A stretch of DNA of 42,777 nucleotides. It comes from Octopus sinensis (taxonomy: Eukaryota). The notes under the pieces were generated by a model that worked only from the letters and a program-made list of their open reading frames with translations, was not told where the DNA came from and did no database searches. Below are positions 1,941 through 35,450 of the stretch, piece by piece (within the stretch, counting starts at the first letter, position 1; every line of letters begins with the position of its first letter). Location of the stretch: the NCBI RefSeq assembly GCF_006345805.1, contig NW_021834658.1, forward strand, positions 1 to 42,777, given 5' to 3'. Position numbers and translations under genes: made by a program.

Positions 1941-2599
1941 GACGGTGAGCCCCCAGGATCGTTAGCATGGCAGAAAAAATAAAACTCAGCGGCTTTTCGT
2001 CCGCTACTTCTAAATATCAGACCTTGTGCCTATAGTAAAAAGGGATTATTATCGTTTGTGCTGGACGTACGTGGAAGAATGTTTTGCACGGGTCAAAGTC
2101 AAAGTGTGTGTTTGTTTTTGAGAGAGGGAAAGCAAGAGATTGGATAAAGTTGGAGCTTTCTTGGGCGGGGGAACTTCGTTCTCATCCAGTGAGTGTCTTT
2201 AATGTTATTGCTACGGCTGTTGGCGTTGTTGTTGCTGAAGTTGTTCTTGTACCCTTCACTGCTGCTGTATGCTTCTGTTGTGGCGTCGAAAGAAGAGGGT
2301 GTGTTGAGGGTGGAGTGAGGTGGGGCTCCAGTTCTTTCGCCTTTATTGTCTTTAGTATATCAGTCTTTTATTCGTGCTCCTTATCAGCGCAAGGTTTGGA
2401 GTAGGTGTGTTCTGTTGATGTTATTCTATTTGTTTACCTGTATGCCAGTGCTGCTCTTGGGTGCGTTTTCTTTTCGTTGAGGTGGGTGTTCTTGTTGTTG
2501 TTGGTGTTGGAGTTGTTGTGGATTTGTCTGTTTGGTGTGGGTGTGATTTCGATTATGTTCTCGTGGTTCGTTTGGAGCCGGTATGAATTTTGTGAAATA

Positions 2600-3020
2600 A
2601 TATTGTGAAATTACGGTTGACTTCGACAGACTGCATAGGAAAGGACCCAGTAACAGGAAAGTGGACGCGTTTACCTGGGACACAAAGTTTATAGAAATTG
2701 AATTAACGATTTAGTTAAGAAAGAAGTGATAGGGGCAGCAGAAGCAACAGATGGTGGTTAGCCCTGAAAAGGGTTATTAGACAAATCGCGATAAGATTTA
2801 TTAAAGAAATAGGGATAAAAAAATTCTTGAGTAGAAGGGGAGCTAGTAAGTATCTTAGAAGAGGGATTGAGGAAAGGAACTGCGACTGGCGGTGATATTG
2901 GCGCTTGACCGATTCTTCAAAGTTAAATATAAGGGTTGCATTGTCAGAGCTAAGGTACTTGCTGTAAGGTATGAGCAAAGAGAAACCGTTCGAAGGGCCC
3001 GGATGGCAGAGGCGTAACAT
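2600..3020 (+). mobile_element. Decayed Tx1/L1-clade LINE ORF2 fragment (end of endonuclease and linker)
   Basis: Frameshifted translations TVDFDRLHRKGPS.., RWWLALKRVIRQIAIRF and LDRFFKVKYKGCIVRAK resemble the GPGxWKLN, WWxxxKxxIRxxxIxY and KxxGxxIRSK motifs of L1/Tx1 ORF2. Confidence 0.65.
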
Positions 3021-3469
3021 GAAGAGAAAACCACGATTCAGTCATCGATGGAATAAGCTATGAATTCTATCTTTGCTCTGTTTTTGTAAAATTTCCCGTT
3101 TGTTGTGTTTTTGCTAAATTACTGAAGTATATTTATGTTACATAAAGCTATGCACTTCTGCTTCTTTTTTTACTCAGTTGTAAAATATACTTGGAATATT
3201 TTTTGTGCGACTTCTATTACTGTTTCTTTCTCTTTCGTTGCATCACTTTTGCCCACTCTCTTTCTCTCTCGTTCCCTTCCTAGTACTTTACTTCTTTCTT
3301 CGTTCTGACTTTCTATCCGTCCCTCTCTCGTCTTCAGGCCTACAGGACATTTTCATTTTCGTTTGCGTTACCGCATATCTGTCTGTCTTGCGGGCGCACG
3401 GCATTTTCTGTTGCATATGTATGTTTCATGATGTTGTGTTTGTTTTTGTCATTGTCATATACATTCGTT

Positions 3470-3580
3470 AGCTATTCCCAATGGCTTTTCGCCACCCGTG
3501 CCACCAAAAGTGAATAATATCAACGTTAAAGGCGCGAAATTGTAATGATCTTTTGGGCGTTGACTGACGAGGAATAAGCT
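3470..3580 (+). ncRNA. Candidate rearranged (non-circularly permuted) hammerhead ribozyme
   Basis: Triplet AUA 3517-3519, GAAA 3536-3539, CTGACGA 3564-3570. Pairings: 3470-3478/3571-3580 (one bulge), 3498-3502/3531-3535, 3504-3510/3550-3556, 3514-3518/3539-3543, 3520-3526/3557-3563. Confidence 0.65.
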
Positions 3581-3700
3581 ATGAATTTTCTGCTTGTTAT
3601 GCTTTTTTAAAAATATTCCGTTTGTTGTGTTTTCGTTATATCATTTAAACACACACACACACACATACACGCACATAGTTATGGTATATTCCATTAGGAA

Positions 3701-3818
3701 CTTGGCGGAGTACTATATAAAGCTCGTCCACCTTCAGAATTTACCAATATTATCCGGTAGCATTATTATATACTTCCAGGTTTATACAGCGGTAATCGTC
3801 GTGTGTGAATTTCTCCGT

Positions 3819-3821
<3 letters not shown>
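3701..3821 (+). repeat. ~120-bp block present three times (also ~4767-4887 + and ~5520-5640 -)
   Basis: CTTGGCGGAGTACTATATAAAGCTC...GTGTGAATTTCT.CGTAG is near-identical in all copies, each followed by (AT)n. Confidence 0.9.
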
Positions 3822-3916
<95 letters not shown>

Positions 3917-4447
3917 TATATACATACACACATAGATATATGTGTGTGTTGTGTGTATCCGCACCCACTTGCACACATATATACTCACTCACACACAACG
4001 TATATATCCACACGCACACACAAGTACACACACAAACACACGTACGCATACACAAACAGAAAGGGGGGTAAAGAAAGAAGAAAGAATACGAAGTGCATTG
4101 AGGAAGAATCAAACACGGCTTAAGGTCATTAAGGCTTTTCAAGATTAGAAGATTTGGCTTAAGAGAGCCGCTTGAGGGAGGGGGAAGTGGGGAATAGTCT
4201 GTGTGTGTGTGTCGGTGTGCAGATAAAAGGATACGGGGAAGAAGAGGAAAGGATATTGGTAGACAAGAACAGAGAATATATGACCATAAAAATGTAGAAT
4301 ATGTGTTTTTAAATATATTAAGATATATATATATATAGACATATATAAGCGTGCATATACTCATCCATATATACATGCATCAATACACATATGTATGCAT
4401 ATGTGTATGTATGTATATGTGTATGTATGTATGTATGTATGTATATA

Positions 4448-4560
4448 TAGGACAATCAGTAAGTTCTCATAATAGAACTCAGAGTTTCAAATGCCTAGAA
4501 GCTTTTACCTCTGGCATTTGAAATTTTGAGTTCTGTTATGACAACTTACTGATTGTTCTG
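4448..4560. mobile_element. ~113-bp palindromic MITE, Tc1/mariner-like and TA-flanked; mirrored at about 5837-5949
   Basis: CAATCAGTAAGTTCTCATAATAGAACTCAGAGTTTCAAATGCC is an imperfect inverted repeat of GGCATTTGAAATTTTGAGTTCTGTTATGACAACTTACTGATTG; TA on both sides. Confidence 0.75.
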
Positions 4561-4563
4561 TAC

Positions 4564-4597
<34 letters not shown>

Positions 4598-4930
4598 TGT
4601 ATGTATGTATGTATGTATGTATGTATGTATGTATGTATACACACACACACACACCACACACACTCACACATATATATATATATATATACACATTTCTCTA
4701 TTTACATAATATCGAGGTCTCATTCTTTTGTTGTCGTTTTATTATAATTATTAATATACATATATACTTGGCGGAGTACTATATAAAGCTCATCCACCTT
4801 CAGAATTTACCAATATTATCCGGTAGCATTATTATATACTTCCAGGTTTATACAGCGGTAATCGTCGTGTGTGAATTTCTTCGTAGATATATATATATAT
4901 ATATAGACTTCATAAATTGAAACTGATTTG

Positions 4931-4992
4931 AAAATCGGTAATCCACCTGAAGATTGTCATTGAGGACATGAAACAATTGTAGTGGCGGTTTT
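4931..4992 (+). ncRNA. Type I hammerhead ribozyme with palindromic helix III (Penelope/retrozyme type)
   Basis: CCAC(4943-46)-CTGAAGA-T-TGTC/GACA-T-GAAA-CAATTG-TA-GTGG(4982-85). Helix III region ACAATTGT is a palindrome. Helix I extends through AAAATCG/CGGTTTT with a GTAAT bulge. Predicted cut after GUA at 4981. Confidence 0.8.
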
Positions 4993-5197
4993 TTTTACTT
5001 TTTATTAAAATTTTATGTATTGATTAAGTCTTTCCTTGTTTGTTTTACAAAATAGTGGTTTTGTCTCTGATTAATATTATATAATATTTTACTATAAATT
5101 TGGATTTAATCCTAAATCTGATTTTTTCCCTGTAAATTTGGATTATTCCCTAATATTTATATTATTATATATATATATATATATACATACATACATG

Positions 5198-5244
<47 letters not shown>

Positions 5245-5416
5245 ATAATAAATATTAGGGAATAAATCCAAATTACAGGGAACAAATCAGATTTAGGATT
5301 AAATCCAAATTTATAGTAAAATATTATATAATATTAATCAGAGACAAAACCACTATTTTGTAAAACAAACAAGGAAACACTTAATCAATACATAAAATTT
5401 TAATAAAAAGTAAAAA

Positions 5417-5478
5417 AAAACCGCCACTACAATTGTTTCATGTCCTCAATGACAATCTTCAGGTGGATTACCGATTTT
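5417..5478 (-). ncRNA. Mirror copy of the type I hammerhead in the right arm
   Basis: Reverse complement of 4931-4992; core at 5424-5466. Confidence 0.8.
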
Positions 5479-6571
5479 CAAATCAGTTTCAATTTATGAA
5501 GTCTATATATATATATATATCTACGAAGAAATTCACACACGACGATTACCGCTGTATAAACCTGGAAGTATATAATAATGCTACCGGATAATATTGGTAA
5601 ATTCTGAAGGTGGATGAGCTTTATATAGTACTCCGCCAAGTATATATGTATATTAATAATTATAATAAAACGACAACAAAAGAATGAGACCTCGATATTA
5701 TGTAAATAGAAAATGTGTATATATATATATATATATATTATATATATGTGTGAGTGTGGTGTGTGTGTGTGTGTGTGTGTGTTTGTGTATACATATACAT
5801 ACATACATACATACATACATACATACATACATAGTACAGAACAATCAGTAAGTTGTCATATCAGAACTCAAAATTTCAAATGCCAGAGGTAAAAGCTTCT
5901 AGGCATTTGAAACTCTGAGTTCTATTATGAGAACTTACTGATTGTCCTATATATACATACATACATACATACATACACATATACATACATACACATATGC
6001 ATACATATGTGTATTTATGCATGTATATATGGATGAGTATATGCACGCTTATATATGTCTATATATATATATATCTTAATATATTTAAAAACACATATTC
6101 TACATTTTTATGGTCATATATTCTCTGTTCTTGTCTACCAATATCCTTTCCTCTTCTTCCCCGTATCCTTTTATCTGCACACCGACACACACACACAGAC
6201 TATTCCCCACTTCCCCCTCCCTCAAGCGGCTCTCTTAAGCCAAATCTTCTAATCTTGAAAAGCCTTAATGACCTTAAGCCGTGTTTGATTCTTCCTCAAT
6301 GCACTTCGTATTCTTTCTTCTTTCTTGTGTGTGTTTGTGTGTGTGTGTGTGTATACATATATTCTTATTGATAGATCTATTTACTCTTAATCTTTCCCTA
6401 GATCTGGGTATACCCATCAGTAGACACATTCTAGAATTAGTCATATCCTAATTAAGGGACAAACCCCTGGATTTCTCCCCCCCCCACACATATATGCTTT
6501 CTCATTGGTAATGCTTTTCGGTATATATGCATAAATGTAATTATTTCCCAAATAAATTGAACTTCATATTT

Positions 6572-9984: not shown

Positions 9985-10090
9985 GTTATTATTATTAGTT
10001 ATTATTATTATTTATCTATTGGCTTATTATTATTTATTATTATTATTATTATTATTTTATTATTTATTATTATTATTATTATATTATAAT

Positions 10091-10256
10091 ATGTTGACAT
10101 TTGCTTTACATTGTGTACAAGTTGTACAAATCTCACAATCTCACCCGAGATACCTCAAGAAACAACAAGTTGGAAGTTCTCATGTTGCATTGGTGTTGGT
10201 TGGTTGCTCATGTTATTATTATATATTATTATTATTATTATTATTATTATTTATTA

Positions 10257-10292
<36 letters not shown>

Positions 10293-10459
10293 TATTATTA
10301 TTATTATTATTTATTATTATTATTATTATATGTTTGACATTTGCTTACATTTGTACAAGTTGTACAAATCTCACAAGTCTCACCCAGAGACCTCAAGAAC
10401 AACAAGTTGGAAGTTCATGTTGGCATTGGTGTTGGTGTGCTCATGTTATTATTATTATA

Positions 10460-10497
<38 letters not shown>

Positions 10498-10691
10498 TAT
10501 TATTATATATTATTAATTATTATTATTATTATTATTATTTATTATTATTATTATTTATTATTATTATTATTATTATTGTTGACATTTGCTTTACATTTGT
10601 ACAAGTTGTACAAATCTCACAAGTCTCACCCAGAGACCTCAAGAAACAACAAGTTGGAAGTTCATGTTGGCGTTGGTGTTGGTGTTGCTCA

Positions 10692-10743
<52 letters not shown>

Positions 10744-10760
10744 ATTATTATTATTATTAA

Positions 10761-10797
<37 letters not shown>

Positions 10798-11286
10798 TAT
10801 TATTATTATTATTATTATATGTTTGACATTTGCTTTACATTTGTACAAGTTGTACAAATCTCACAAGTCTCACCCAGAGACCTCAAGAAACAAGTTGGAA
10901 GTTGCTCATGTTATTATTATTATTATTATTATTATTTTTTTTTTTTTCCTCTTTCAAATTTTCTTCCATTTCTTGCCTAGTGTCTTCCCGACTCCTTATT
11001 ATTATTATTATTATATATTATATTATTATTATTATATATTATATTATTATTATATTATTATATTATTAATATTATTATTATTATTATATTATTATTATTA
11101 TTATTATTATATTATTATTATTATTATTATTTATTATTTATTATTATTATATGTTTGACTTATGCTTTACATTTATACAATTGTACAAATCTCACAAGTC
11201 TCACCAGAGACCTCAAGAAACAAGTTGAAGTTCATGTTGGCGTTGGTGTTGGTGTTGCTCATTGTTATTATTATTATTATTATTAC

Positions 11287-11324
<38 letters not shown>

Positions 11325-11476
11325 TATTATGTATTATTATTATTATATTATTATTATTATTATATGTTTGACTTTTGCTTTACATTTATACAAATTGTAC
11401 AAATCTCACAAGTCTCACCCAGAGACCTCAAGAAACAAGTTGGAAGTTCCTGTTGGCGTTGGTGTGGTGTTGCTCA

Positions 11477-11520
<44 letters not shown>

Positions 11521-11711
11521 TATTATTATTATTTATTATTATTATTATATTATTATTTATTATTATATGTTTGACATTTGCTTTACATTTGTACAAGTTG
11601 TACAATCTCACAAGTCTCACCAGAGACCTCAAGAAACAACAAGTTGAAGTTCATGTTGGCAATGGTGTTGGTGTTGCTCATGTTATTATTATTATTATTA
11701 TTATATTATTA

Positions 11712-11782
<71 letters not shown>

Positions 11783-11918
11783 GATTATTATTATATTATT
11801 ATATATGTTTGACTTATGCTTTACATTTATACAAATTGTACAAATCTCACAAGTCTCACCCAGAGACCTCAAGAAACAAGTTGGAAGTTCATGTTGGCGT
11901 TGGTGTTGGTGTTGCTCA

Positions 11919-12001
<83 letters not shown>

Positions 12002-12152
12002 GTTTGACTTTTGCTTTACATTTGTACAAGTTGTACAAATCTCACAAGTCTCACCCAGAGACCTCAAGAAACAAGTTGGAAGTTCAAGTTGGCGTTGGTG
12101 TTGGTGTTGCTCATGTTATTATTATTATTATTATATTAGTATTATTATTATA

Positions 12153-12184
<32 letters not shown>

Positions 12185-12546
12185 GTTGACTTATGCTTTA
12201 CATTTATACAAGTTGTACAAATCTCACAAGTCTCACCCAGAGACCTCAAGAAACAAGTTGGAAGATCATGTTGGCGTTGGTGTTGGTGTTGCTCATGTTA
12301 TTATTATTATTATTATATTATTTTATTATTATTATTATTATTTTATATTATTATTTATTATTATTATTATGATTATTATTAGTTATTATTATTATTATTA
12401 TCATTATTATATGTTTGACTTATGCTTTACATTTATACAAATTGTACAATCTCACAAGTCTCACACCCAGAGACCTCAAGAAACAAGTTGGAAGTTCATG
12501 TTGGCGTTGGTGTTGGTGTTGCTCATGTTATATTATTATTATATTC

Positions 12547-12593
<47 letters not shown>

Positions 12594-12720
12594 TATTATT
12601 ATTATTATGTTTGACTTTTGCTTTACATTTATACAAATTGTACAAATCTCACAAGTCTCACCCAGAGACCTCAAGAAACAAGTTGGAAGTTCATGTTGGC
12701 GTTGGTGTTGGTGTGCTCAT

Positions 12721-12780
<60 letters not shown>

Positions 12781-12985
12781 GTTTGACATTTGCTTTACAT
12801 TTGTACAAGTTGTACAAATCTCACAAGTCTCACCCAGAGACCTCAAGAAACAACAAGTTGGAAGTTCATGTTGGCAATGGTGTTGGTGTTGCTCATGTTA
12901 TTATATTATATTATTATTATTTAGTTATTATTATTATTATTATATTATTATTATTATTATTATATTATTATTATTATTATTATTA

Positions 12986-13023
<38 letters not shown>

Positions 13024-13361
13024 CATTTTATATGTTTGACTTATGCTTTACATTTATACAAATTGTACAAATCTCACAAGTCTCACCCAGAGACCTCAAG
13101 AAACAAGTTGGAAGTTCATGTTGGCGTTGGTGTTGGTGTTGCTCATGTTATTATTATTATTTATTATTATTATTATTATTATATTATATTATTATTATTT
13201 TATTATTATTATTATTATTATATGTTTGACTTTTGCTTTACATTTGTAAGTGTTGTACAAATCTCCAAGTCTCACCCAGAGACCTCAAGAGAAAACAAGT
13301 TGGAAGTTCAAGTTGGCGTTGGTGTTGGTGTTGCTCATATTATTATTATTATATATTATTA

Positions 13362-13436
<75 letters not shown>

Positions 13437-13819
13437 TATTATTATGTTTGACTTATGCTTTACATTTATACAAGTTGTACAATCTCACAAGTCTCACCCA
13501 GAGACCTCAAGAAACAAGTTGGAAGTTCATGTTGGCGTTGGTGTTGGTGTTGCTCATGTATTATTATTATTATTATTCATTATTATTATTATTTATTATT
13601 ATTATTATTAATATTATTATTATTATTATATTATTATTATTATTATTATTATTATATTATTATTATCATTATTATATGTTTGACTTATGCTTACATTTAT
13701 ACAAATTGTACAAATCTCACAAGTCTCACCCAGAGACCTCAAGAAACAAGTGGAAGTTCATGTTGGCGCGTTGGTGTTGGTGTTGCTCAGTTATATTATT
13801 ATTATTATTATTATTATTA

Positions 13820-13866
<47 letters not shown>

Positions 13867-13996
13867 GTTTGACTTTTGCTTTACATTTGTACAAGTTGTA
13901 CAAATCTCACAGTCTCACCCAGAGACCTCAAGAAACAGTTGGAAGTTCAAGTTGGCGTTGGTGTTGGTGTTGCTCATGTTATTATTATTATTATTA

Positions 13997-14032
<36 letters not shown>

Positions 14033-14170
14033 TATTATTATTATTATTATTATATGTTTGACTTATGCTTTACATTTATACAAGTTGTACAAATCTCACA
14101 AGTCCCACCCAGAGACCTCAACAAACAACAAGTTGGAAGTTCATGTTGGCGTTGGTGTTGGTGTTGCTCA

Positions 14171-14172
<2 letters not shown>
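10091..14172 (-). repeat. Satellite: 19 copies of a ~115-bp unit separated by variable (ATT)n tracts
   Basis: Unit ATGTTTGAC.T.TGCTTTACATTT.TACAA.TTGTACAAATCTCACAAGTCTCACCCAGAGACCTCAAGAAACAAGTTGGAAGTTCATGTTGGCGTTGGTGTTGGTGTTGCTCATG. Approximate starts: 10091, 10330, 10578, 10819, 11151, 11364, 11567, 11805, 12000, 12183, 12411, 12607, 12779, 13032, 13222, 13444, 13676, 13865, 14054. Confidence 0.95.
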
Positions 14173-14218
<46 letters not shown>

Positions 14219-14286
14219 CATCATCATCATCATCATTATTATTATTATTATTAATATTATTATTATTATTATCATCATCATTATTA

Positions 14287-14361
<75 letters not shown>

Positions 14362-14391
14362 TATTATTATTATCATTATCATTATTATTAT

Positions 14392-14906
14392 TGAGTGAGG
14401 GAGCAGTTCATGCCATCGAAGTGACACTGGGGTAAAATATGCGAAGCCCAGTATACCCATCATGACTACCCGTCTGATAAGGGTACACCAGGCACATGCA
14501 TCACAACCATATGTGCGCGACATGGTGATCTCATATCAAGATAAACAGCGCATGACCTCGCAGGTGGGGCCCAGTTAGAATTTTCTTCAGGTTGAGTAGC
14601 CCTTCCCGCTCAAAAGGTCCCTGAACTAGGGTTGTTTATGGATGTTGAAAGAACCACCCATGTTTCCAGAGGTGAATTATTCAAACCCCAAAGAATCCCT
14701 CTCAACACATGGCTATGATGCTCCCCCACTACTTCTGCTCGTGATCAGAGATGCACATATCGTCAGCCACTAAGGGACATGCTCAACTGGTTAAGCTCAA
14801 ACAACTGACAAGCAAATCTGTGGTATTGAGCAGAATATTTGTTGTAGCCCATCTTTTATACAAGACAAAACAATGTACATGATAACTTCCAATCAGTTAA
14901 GATCAG
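14392..14906 (-). mobile_element. Interspersed repeat, probably a 5'-truncated non-LTR 3' UTR with an (AAT)n tail; older partial copy at ~17830-17995
   Basis: A 515-bp complex block embedded in (ATT)n. 14680-14850 aligns by eye with 17830-17995. Contains rearranged hammerhead motifs. Confidence 0.65.
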
Positions 14907-34842: not shown

Positions 34843-34979
34843 TTCCATCCCACAAATCTGTAGCAGAAACAACACTGAGAAACACTGCAGCGATGCAATG
34901 TGAAGTTCGTTGGAATAACATTATTTTGATGTGGTGTGAAAGAAGGAAAGTTGTAAATATAGTCGAAAATTTAACCGTA

Positions 34980-35450
34980 AACCTCCTCGAGGAATGTAAA
35001 GACGCAGGCTGGAAAGTGGAACATTTTCCAATCGAAGTCGGATGTAGAGGGTTCGTTGGACACAGTGTGAGACGACTGTTGTTATCGTTAGGCCTAACTC
35101 ATCGTAAAGTCAATACCACCATGACCGATATCCAATCTACAGTGGAGAAAGCTAGCCACTGGATTTGGTTAAAAAGAGACGATGAGCGATGGCTAGAAAG
35201 ATATTGAGCTTAATTTGATAACCAGCTGATCTAGCTTCATATCAGTGAGGGGGGCCGGTGCGCATTGATGCCGTCGAGAGGTAGGCCCAGAAACGGCGCG
35301 CATTCTCTCCTGATGACCCCATACACTTGCTGACTTCCGGTATACGGAGCTTTTGGTTGGTAGCACTTGCATGTGCAAGTTGTTTGCAAGACATCTGCGA
35401 TATGTGTCCCTTGTGGTACATATTGCAGGAGATAAACAGGGACTTGTGTA
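34980..35450 (+). mobile_element. 5'-truncated HERO-like (RLE-type) non-LTR retrotransposon 3' end; coding to stop at 35207, then 3' UTR
   Basis: LLEECKDAGWKVEHFPIEVGCRGFVGHSVRRLLLSLG..VEKASHWIWLKR. The P.EVGCRGF and AS.W.W.KR motifs are typical of HERO C-termini. The 3' boundary is approximate. Confidence 0.85.
35242..35333 (+). ncRNA. Candidate rearranged hammerhead ribozyme in the HERO-like 3' UTR
   Basis: GUC 35273-35275, GAAA 35290-35293, CTGATGA 35310-35316. Pairings: 35242-49/35326-33, 35252-56/35284-88, 35257-63/35298-304, 35270-74/35293-97, 35276-80/35305-09. Confidence 0.7.

Follow-up and report, generated by a model that had tools for sequence, protein, structure and literature searches.

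A candidate split-core hammerhead of S-G-C order near the 3′ end of a probable non-autonomous Naiad element in Octopus sinensis

Hammerhead RNAs with the permuted block orders S-G-C and C-S-G cleave in vitro (Eckert et al. 2023, PMC10085705). According to the available sections of that paper, the S-G-C form (HRIMA-1 and the SGC variant) comes almost entirely from metatranscriptomes, with no example in the genome of a known organism except one weak GCS candidate, and type CSG is represented by two metagenomic sequences only. The same sections assume that CUGANGA is directly followed by a strand of stem II and state that these forms contain no multi-stem junction. Natural insertions in the hammerhead core comprise one or two bases, some of which impair activity (PMC3088659); the accessible passages of that study include no insertion like a split between A9 and G10.1, and the parts of the literature examined hold no tested hammerhead in which A9 is unlinked from G10.1. 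Among retrotransposons, the Naiads are described as being without a canonical hammerhead; ten entries are labeled ‘HHR_core’ and eight ‘HHR_half_core’, and the core or half core of these 18 fits no descriptor (Craig et al. 2021, PMC8557442, available in part). Naiads insert at (TA)n targets, are truncated at the 5′ end and form partial tandems (same sections of PMC8557442). Non-LTR retrozymes carry canonical type I hammerheads in tandem units that have been traced to Penelope-like pLTRs (PMC7229834; bioRxiv 10.64898/2026.07.22.740005; both in excerpt).

The window analyzed here is a 42,777-nt stretch of microsatellite-rich animal DNA from Octopus sinensis, a complete contig (NW_021834658.1) of a 2.7-Gb genome. 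Positions 3470–3580 of its forward strand, on which the host insertion and the second copy of the fold described below also lie, contain a motif that we read as a decayed copy of a likely self-cleaving S-G-C hammerhead. Its stem II would be split, and the repeat that carries it close to the 3′ end is probably a non-autonomous Naiad; we put the probability of this reading at roughly 80%. The initial annotation had proposed a rearranged hammerhead with five stems, and a letter-by-letter check of the stems and core nucleotides recovers all of them in place. The 5′ strand of the outer stem, helix B (3470–3478), forms nine pairs with 3571–3580, leaving A3576 bulged and placing C3478-G3571 at the junction. 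It is followed by the helix C hairpin (3479–3497), by the 5′ strand of helix D (3498–3502, 5/5 paired with 3531–3535, one G-U) and by that of helix E (3504–3510, 7/7 paired with 3550–3556). A UGA linker (3511–3513) leads into block S (3514–3527), which holds a helix III strand (3514–3518), the AUA triplet whose last base, A3519, is H17, the predicted cut at 3519/3520 and a helix I strand (3520–3526). Positions 3528–3530 link stem I to stem II. Block G (3531–3543) comprises the 3′ strand of helix D, with C3535 at position 11.1, GAAA (3536–3539) and the second helix III strand (3539–3543; 5/5 paired, one G-U), and is joined to helix I through a 3–4-nt linker. A segment at 3544–3556 contains the kink-turn-like bulged strand (3544–3549) and the 3′ strand of helix E (3550–3556). 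Block C (3557–3570) consists of the 3′ strand of helix I (3557–3563; 7/7 paired, one G-U) and CUGACGA (3564–3570), and the first base of the 3′ strand of helix B (3571–3580) comes directly after A9. A T-rich tail (3581–3649) extends to the common 3′ end of the repeat family, where reverse transcription would start. The assignment of helices I and III and the cut predicted after A3519 are upheld. Two features had been missed, a sixth helix (3479–3485/3491–3497), of which four of seven pairs survive, and a kink-turn-like internal loop (3511–3513/3544–3549).

The strand order S (3514–3526), G (3531–3543), C (3557–3570) is the reverse of the canonical hammerhead cyclic order and corresponds to what Eckert et al. 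2023 (PMC10085705, available sections) classify as type SGC. As in hammerheads, CUGANGA, GAAA and UH are directly flanked by stems I and III, both here and in the seven family majorities described below; the features of canonical types I, II and III (order C-G-S, a pseudoknot-free three-way junction and an Rfam match) are absent. As far as the accessible text of PMC10085705 goes, the window motif shares with type SGC the S-G-C order, the core letters, a linker of ~3 nt between stems I and II and a helix tying the other sides of these stems together, helix E being the presumed counterpart of the published stem I–II interaction helix. Unlike type SGC, the motif lies in an animal genome at retrotransposon 3′ ends, is predicted to take the partner strand of stem II from upstream and to form a four-way junction, has both of its ends closed by helix B and includes a kink-turn-like loop. 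Type CSG, as published in the same sections, has the same cyclic order as the window motif but a contiguous stem II and no junction; if a loop closed helix B, the motif would become a CSG ribozyme that carries two additional hairpins between A9 and G10.1.

A loose S-G-C descriptor identifies two sites in the window, the motif at 3470–3580 and one at 35275, while 200 locally shuffled windows average 0.19; across 20 loci, six of ten listed matches looked spurious. In the whole genome, a 16-letter core pattern has 738 matches and the reversed pattern none. Rfam hammerhead models match neither the whole window at the gathering threshold nor positions 3000–3700 at E-value thresholds; a split block C would explain why descriptor and Rfam searches miss the fold. 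Nested folding of the motif gives a z-score of −1.58, which is not significant, an outcome to be expected with three of the helices in pseudoknots. Taken with the chance hits of the descriptor, this z-score is what could be said for mere chance complementarity in an ordinary repeat, to which we leave a negligible probability: the covariation across families refutes it, and the 738 to 0 pattern matches and the junction shuffles below also speak against it.

From the 738 core-pattern matches, 100 were listed and 30 of them fetched, together with 20 further stretches; these fall into families with different stem letters. Majority sequences were built from 47 copies for family A, to which the window motif belongs, 20 for D, 9 for E, 33 for B, 10 for B2, 36 for C and 45 for H; the family A set includes three strays from family D, whose removal leaves the majority unchanged. 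Families B to E were found with a pattern containing GAAA, ARTGAT and CUGAYGA, so that those letters are pre-selected. Parsing yields six helices in each of the seven majorities. Their 27 pair columns hold 189 cells, 188 of them paired, and in 25 of the columns both sides change; the stems, whose loss in homologous copies the initial annotation had named as the case against a ribozyme, are preserved. When partners are shuffled among families, at most 137 cells pair and none of 20,000 shuffles reaches the observed value, a control that overstates significance because the registers were chosen by a pairing-maximizing parser, the families are related (B with B2, A with D) and the shuffle is blind to that kinship. 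The sole invariant pairs are U16.1-A15.1 and G-C11.1, both of which are fixed in hammerheads. Helix E is paired in 35 of 35 cells.

Across the seven families, the base after CUGANGA is G in three, U in two, A in one and C in one; its partner is in every case (7/7) the base immediately 5′ of hairpin C. C11.1 is likewise opposite a G at the start of the upstream strand in every family (G3498 in the window, the putative substitute for G10.1 with C3535 as its partner). Because of these two pairings, helices B, C and D and the core meet in a four-way junction without spare bases, which is parsed in 7/7 families; shuffling the 5′ domain yields such a zero-gap junction in 4–69 of 3000 trials per family. 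The closing pair of hammerhead stem II, 10.1-11.1, which is usually G-C, is present, with its G contributed by the upstream strand. Plain energy minimization recovers helices B, C and D in the split register for the A and H majorities, and only B and C for B2; an energy comparison of the two registers was set aside, since a nested model cannot hold pseudoknots. Stem II is probably built from the upstream strand, with a four-way junction at its base.

The initial annotation had taken G3571-C3535 for the G10.1-C11.1 pair, and this is probably wrong: four of the seven families have U, U, A or C after CUGANGA and all seven pair C11.1 upstream, even if the G3571 register is still possible in the window's own family. 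A plain type-SGC ribozyme in that register, with the junction one pair further out, is an improbable alternative. It is available to families A, D and E, gives the same number of pairs as the split register (16/16 in the majority) and keeps block C contiguous, as the available sections of PMC10085705 assume, and the two registers, one branch-migration step apart, could interconvert. It is, on the other hand, impossible in the other four families, so that the published combination of an unbroken block C and no junction is impossible there and ambiguous in the window's family. The alternative register is also impossible in the coral, hydrozoan, cubozoan, crustacean and cephalopod Naiad ends in the portions of the published consensus file inspected by eye, and the invariance of the upstream G also argues against it.

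With the split register as the preferred arrangement, the family-level motif is, in all likelihood, a self-cleaving ribozyme. It is a strongly covarying hammerhead-type fold of new architecture, for which cleavage is predicted. The catalytic letters (CUGANGA, GAAA and UH) are kept in 7/7 majorities, H17 being A or C only, while nearly all helix letters change. This pattern argues against a conserved 3′ structure that does not catalyze, such as a ribozyme-derived signal bound by a protein; the failure of the Rfam models, the missing link between A9 and G10.1 and the predicted status of catalysis would fit such a structure, which we consider very unlikely.

In a kink-turn, two helices flank a bulge of 3 nt and the tandem G-A/A-G pairs that follow it. 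The linkers between helices E and III fit this pattern in six of the seven families, family H being the exception; the UGA strand reads TGA in five families and TTGA in a sixth. The bulged strand was part of the search pattern, and the UGA strand was not. In the fold that we envisage, helix D would stack on the G12-A9/A13-G8 pairs and supply G10.1-C11.1, helices B and C would form the other arms of the junction, and helix E, bent by the kink-turn against helix III, would tie stems I and II together.

The window copy had been described as retaining all core nucleotides. Its catalytic letters are indeed all intact, but the copy is a decayed one, differing from the family A majority at 11 of 145 positions. 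Of the seven pairs that helix C has in the family majority, the three closest to the junction are broken in this copy, and helices D, III and I have each had one Watson-Crick pair turned into G-U, three in total. The copy is possibly slow-cutting or inactive, and whether it still cuts is somewhat doubtful. Within families, copies decay about neutrally. Core-intact copies number 31 of 45 in family H, with 29 expected under neutral decay, and 17 of 47 in family A against 8.7 expected, but the latter copies were picked by their likeness to an intact one.

The initial annotation had left the host element unnamed, proposing to define its parent repeat. The motif does sit in a dispersed repeat, which can now be assigned: family A is most likely an old, non-coding, non-autonomous Penelope-like element, probably derived from a Naiad. 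Its unit is ~500–520 nt long and has no ORF, and the predicted cut falls about 120–130 nt before the 3′ end. The genome holds 417 candidates, 40 of which were scored and have 81–88% identity. The insertion in the window (3050–3649) is a 5′-truncated partial tandem of ~1.15 units with its 3′ end against (CA)n. It opens with a partial copy (3050–3130) of the unit's own 3′ tail, 80% identical to 3571–3641, that continues into the unit start. Among 29 oriented loci, most copies have the T-rich 3′ end in common, with (TA)n, (CA)n or a similar repeat behind it, and 5′ ends vary widely between copies. Of 30 loci retrieved by means of the unit's 5′ half, 13 extend to the unit start. Eleven of the 13, among them the window, continue into the unit's own 3′ tail, and the other two end at the unit start, the query having contained that very tail/start junction. 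Head-to-tail spacings are 491, 496, 516 and 521 nt, the last being the self-repeat of the window. Each head-to-tail unit has one ribozyme motif, as in non-LTR retrozymes. Like those retrozymes, as described in the excerpts cited above, family A is non-autonomous and has ribozyme-bearing tandem units; unlike them, it has a motif that is non-circularly permuted, and most of its copies are truncated and stand alone. Copies diverge by ~12% from the family majority, and no young subfamily is evident, a 31-letter pattern having nine exact matches.

Family A shares with Naiads, as the available sections of PMC8557442 describe them, the (TA)n target, 5′ truncation and partial tandems, and it has a fixed 3′ end; it lacks the Naiad ORF with an N-terminal GIY-YIG domain and a C-terminal reverse transcriptase (RT). 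Naiad-type RT sequence adjoins 0 of 45 family A loci (flanks of ~1.5 kb), and no autonomous parent was found; because no RT adjoins any copy, the proposed Naiad parentage draws on the fold, the linkers and the insertion pattern. The family also appears in contigs from sequencing runs of three organisms, at least 210–310 contigs in each, one of them possibly the window's own source. In one run, presumed to be of RNA, three contigs overlap the motif; they are not counted as evidence of expression.

The insertion adjoins a decayed LINE fragment at 2000–3050 (+), which we take to be L1/Tx1-like. This fragment was considered as the parent ORF and rejected: it is an APE-RT LINE with 65–76% identity to other loci and is absent from family A flanks. 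A supposed 529-nt tandem at locus L026 was also rejected, as it consists of two short copies with unrelated DNA between them, and was left out of the spacings. At L090:1800-2320, a family A copy is split by a ~500-nt insertion exactly at the predicted cut, with a short duplication. Elsewhere in the window, positions 4071–6326 form a large near-perfect inverted repeat with arms of 539, 210 and 172 nt at 97–100% and a center near 5200, part of which has a further copy at 3700–3837; it is either a recent foldback or an assembly artefact. A tandem array at 10000–14400, with a unit of ~190–230 nt interleaved with (TAT)n, is possibly the 3′ end of another retroelement.

Judged from sequence, two of the sister families (B and B2) end Naiad-type RT genes, and a third (H) ends an R2-group element. 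The family B motif forms the 3′ UTR of a Penelope-type RT, with the reading frame stopping directly after the thumb; of 30 loci selected by the C-terminus of a Penelope-type RT, 18 have the motif downstream of the RT and on its strand. The RVT_1 match of this RT (E 9.6e-5) is below the Pfam cut-off. By eye, the family B 3′ end matches the 3′ ends of Naiad_Obim and Naiad_Ovul in the accessible part of the published file (PMC8557442). Family B2 lies behind a more distant Penelope-type RT (29–38% identity) in 3 of 10 loci, which were fetched as RT hits. No RT was found in 30 loci of family C, 19 of D or 9 of E. In family C, a locus at L108 (G000:C19:45872845-45876148) carries the motif in three tandem, retrozyme-like units of ~325 nt, and spacings at other loci are 550–830 nt.

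The second descriptor site in the window belongs to family H. A copy of the fold at 35216–35335, with a predicted cut after C35275 and a sequence unrelated to family A, occupies the 3′ UTR of an R2-group element whose non-LTR ORF survives as a HERO-like C-terminal remnant at 34956–35207; the element's 3′ end as a whole covers 34956–35400. This copy has A at position 11.1, so that C11.1 is lost, and a 9-nt deletion in outer helix B; it is probably dead as a ribozyme. The element as a whole has 2063 candidates at ~91% identity and is younger than that of family A. Its motif follows full RT ORFs, some of 600–800 aa, that are closest to R2 proteins, with RVT_1 at E 7e-19, a weak C2H2 hit and R2 proteins as the best solved-structure matches. 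The host is putatively of the HERO clade, a group defined by phylogeny whose elements have a single ORF with an N-terminal C2H2 finger, an R2-type RT and a C-terminal restriction-like endonuclease; a motif spotted by eye is presumed to be that endonuclease. The 3′ end lies 118–125 nt past the predicted cut in 51 of 53 aligned pieces. R2 elements carry an HDV-like ribozyme at the 5′ end; it and the family H motif both reside in retrotransposons with a restriction-like endonuclease, the latter differing in being of hammerhead type and in the 3′ UTR. At one locus, L242 (G000:C2:21414500-21423800), ~1 kb of the element's own 3′ end stands directly before a full-length copy, 99.6% identical and pseudo-LTR-like. 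At another, L202:1100-1700, a 161-nt repeat made up of the ORF end and the ribozyme's 5′ half occurs three times in tandem; every repeat breaks off right behind GAAA, and the array looks like the product of repeated template jumps.

The published Naiad consensus file (PMC8557442) was queried with 7–9-letter core words and the returned passages, which cover part of the 54 Naiads, were parsed by eye. The S-G-C fold, helices B, C, D and E included, recurs in ten consensus ends that span five phyla: Naiad_Bfor (ctenophore, with a short helix I), one Clytia element, three Acropora elements, Naiad-2_Movir, an element in part 12 of the supplement (probably Naiad_Plae), one in part 19 (crustacean block), Naiad_Obim and Naiad_Ovul. 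In five nematode consensus ends (parts 13–16), the order is C-S-G and stem II is unbroken. Three passages with CUGANGA (parts 17–19) could not be parsed by eye and are excluded from these counts.

The position of the motif suggests how it might act. A transcript through a partial tandem would be cut once per unit, releasing a unit-length RNA of ~500 nt whose ends would remain paired and could be joined into a circle. A helper's RT would begin at a (TA)n nick, ~120–130 nt past the cut, and its copying would pass over the cut site and continue round into the unit's own tail. Genomic copies are indeed continuous over the cut site and lead back into their own tail, a picture that uncut multimers would give as well. 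There is no pile-up of 5′ ends at the predicted cut: 2 of 60 pieces begin there, one through an internal deletion and one split by an insertion, in a sample that favors long matches. A circle or a cut-and-rejoin route is, in our estimate, evenly poised between true and false.

A less likely course of events is that a real ribozyme cuts the element RNA out of read-through or head-to-tail co-transcripts, providing the 5′ end of the next copy or an aid to translation, and that uncut linear multimers are reverse transcribed with no circle involved. The head-to-tail R2-group tandem at L242 and the genomic copies that read across the cut site agree with this. So does work on the anole Penelope, for which the accessible sections of PMC11167929 report that unprocessed RNA is the main substrate in vitro. 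The canonical hammerhead of that element is protein-dependent and dispensable for insertion in vitro, and no RNA-seq ends fall at its cut site (same sections of PMC11167929). Cutting would nevertheless strip any single copy of its last ~120 nt, where copying starts, and helices B, D, E and III would hold the two products together, in keeping with rejoining.

For the circular route in its broadest form the odds are again about even: the split core, with its CUGANGA strand detached from stem II and tied back by a four-way junction, would be a fourth way to break a hammerhead; it or its C-S-G form would be the missing hammerhead of Naiads in different animal phyla, and an unrelated R2-group element would share it at a similar distance (~120 nt) from the 3′ end because both kinds of element copy themselves from cut-and-rejoined circles.

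In the titles, abstracts and passages that were accessible, neither this fold nor permuted hammerheads in animal retrotransposons are described, and both are likewise absent from the available passages of PMC13725137 and of two 2026 preprints. To the extent of these sources, the split-core S-G-C architecture is new, the S-G-C permutation having been known before only from metatranscriptomes. If our reading is right, the published view that Naiads have no hammerheads would no longer stand, nor would the working rule against a split block C. Ribozymes with a non-circular permutation, so far a matter of environmental RNA, would then have a place in animal genomes, in hundreds to thousands of copies. 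Finally, with the fold similarly placed in Penelope-like and in R2-group elements, what these ribozymes do in retrotransposition could be tested directly with a 110-nt RNA.
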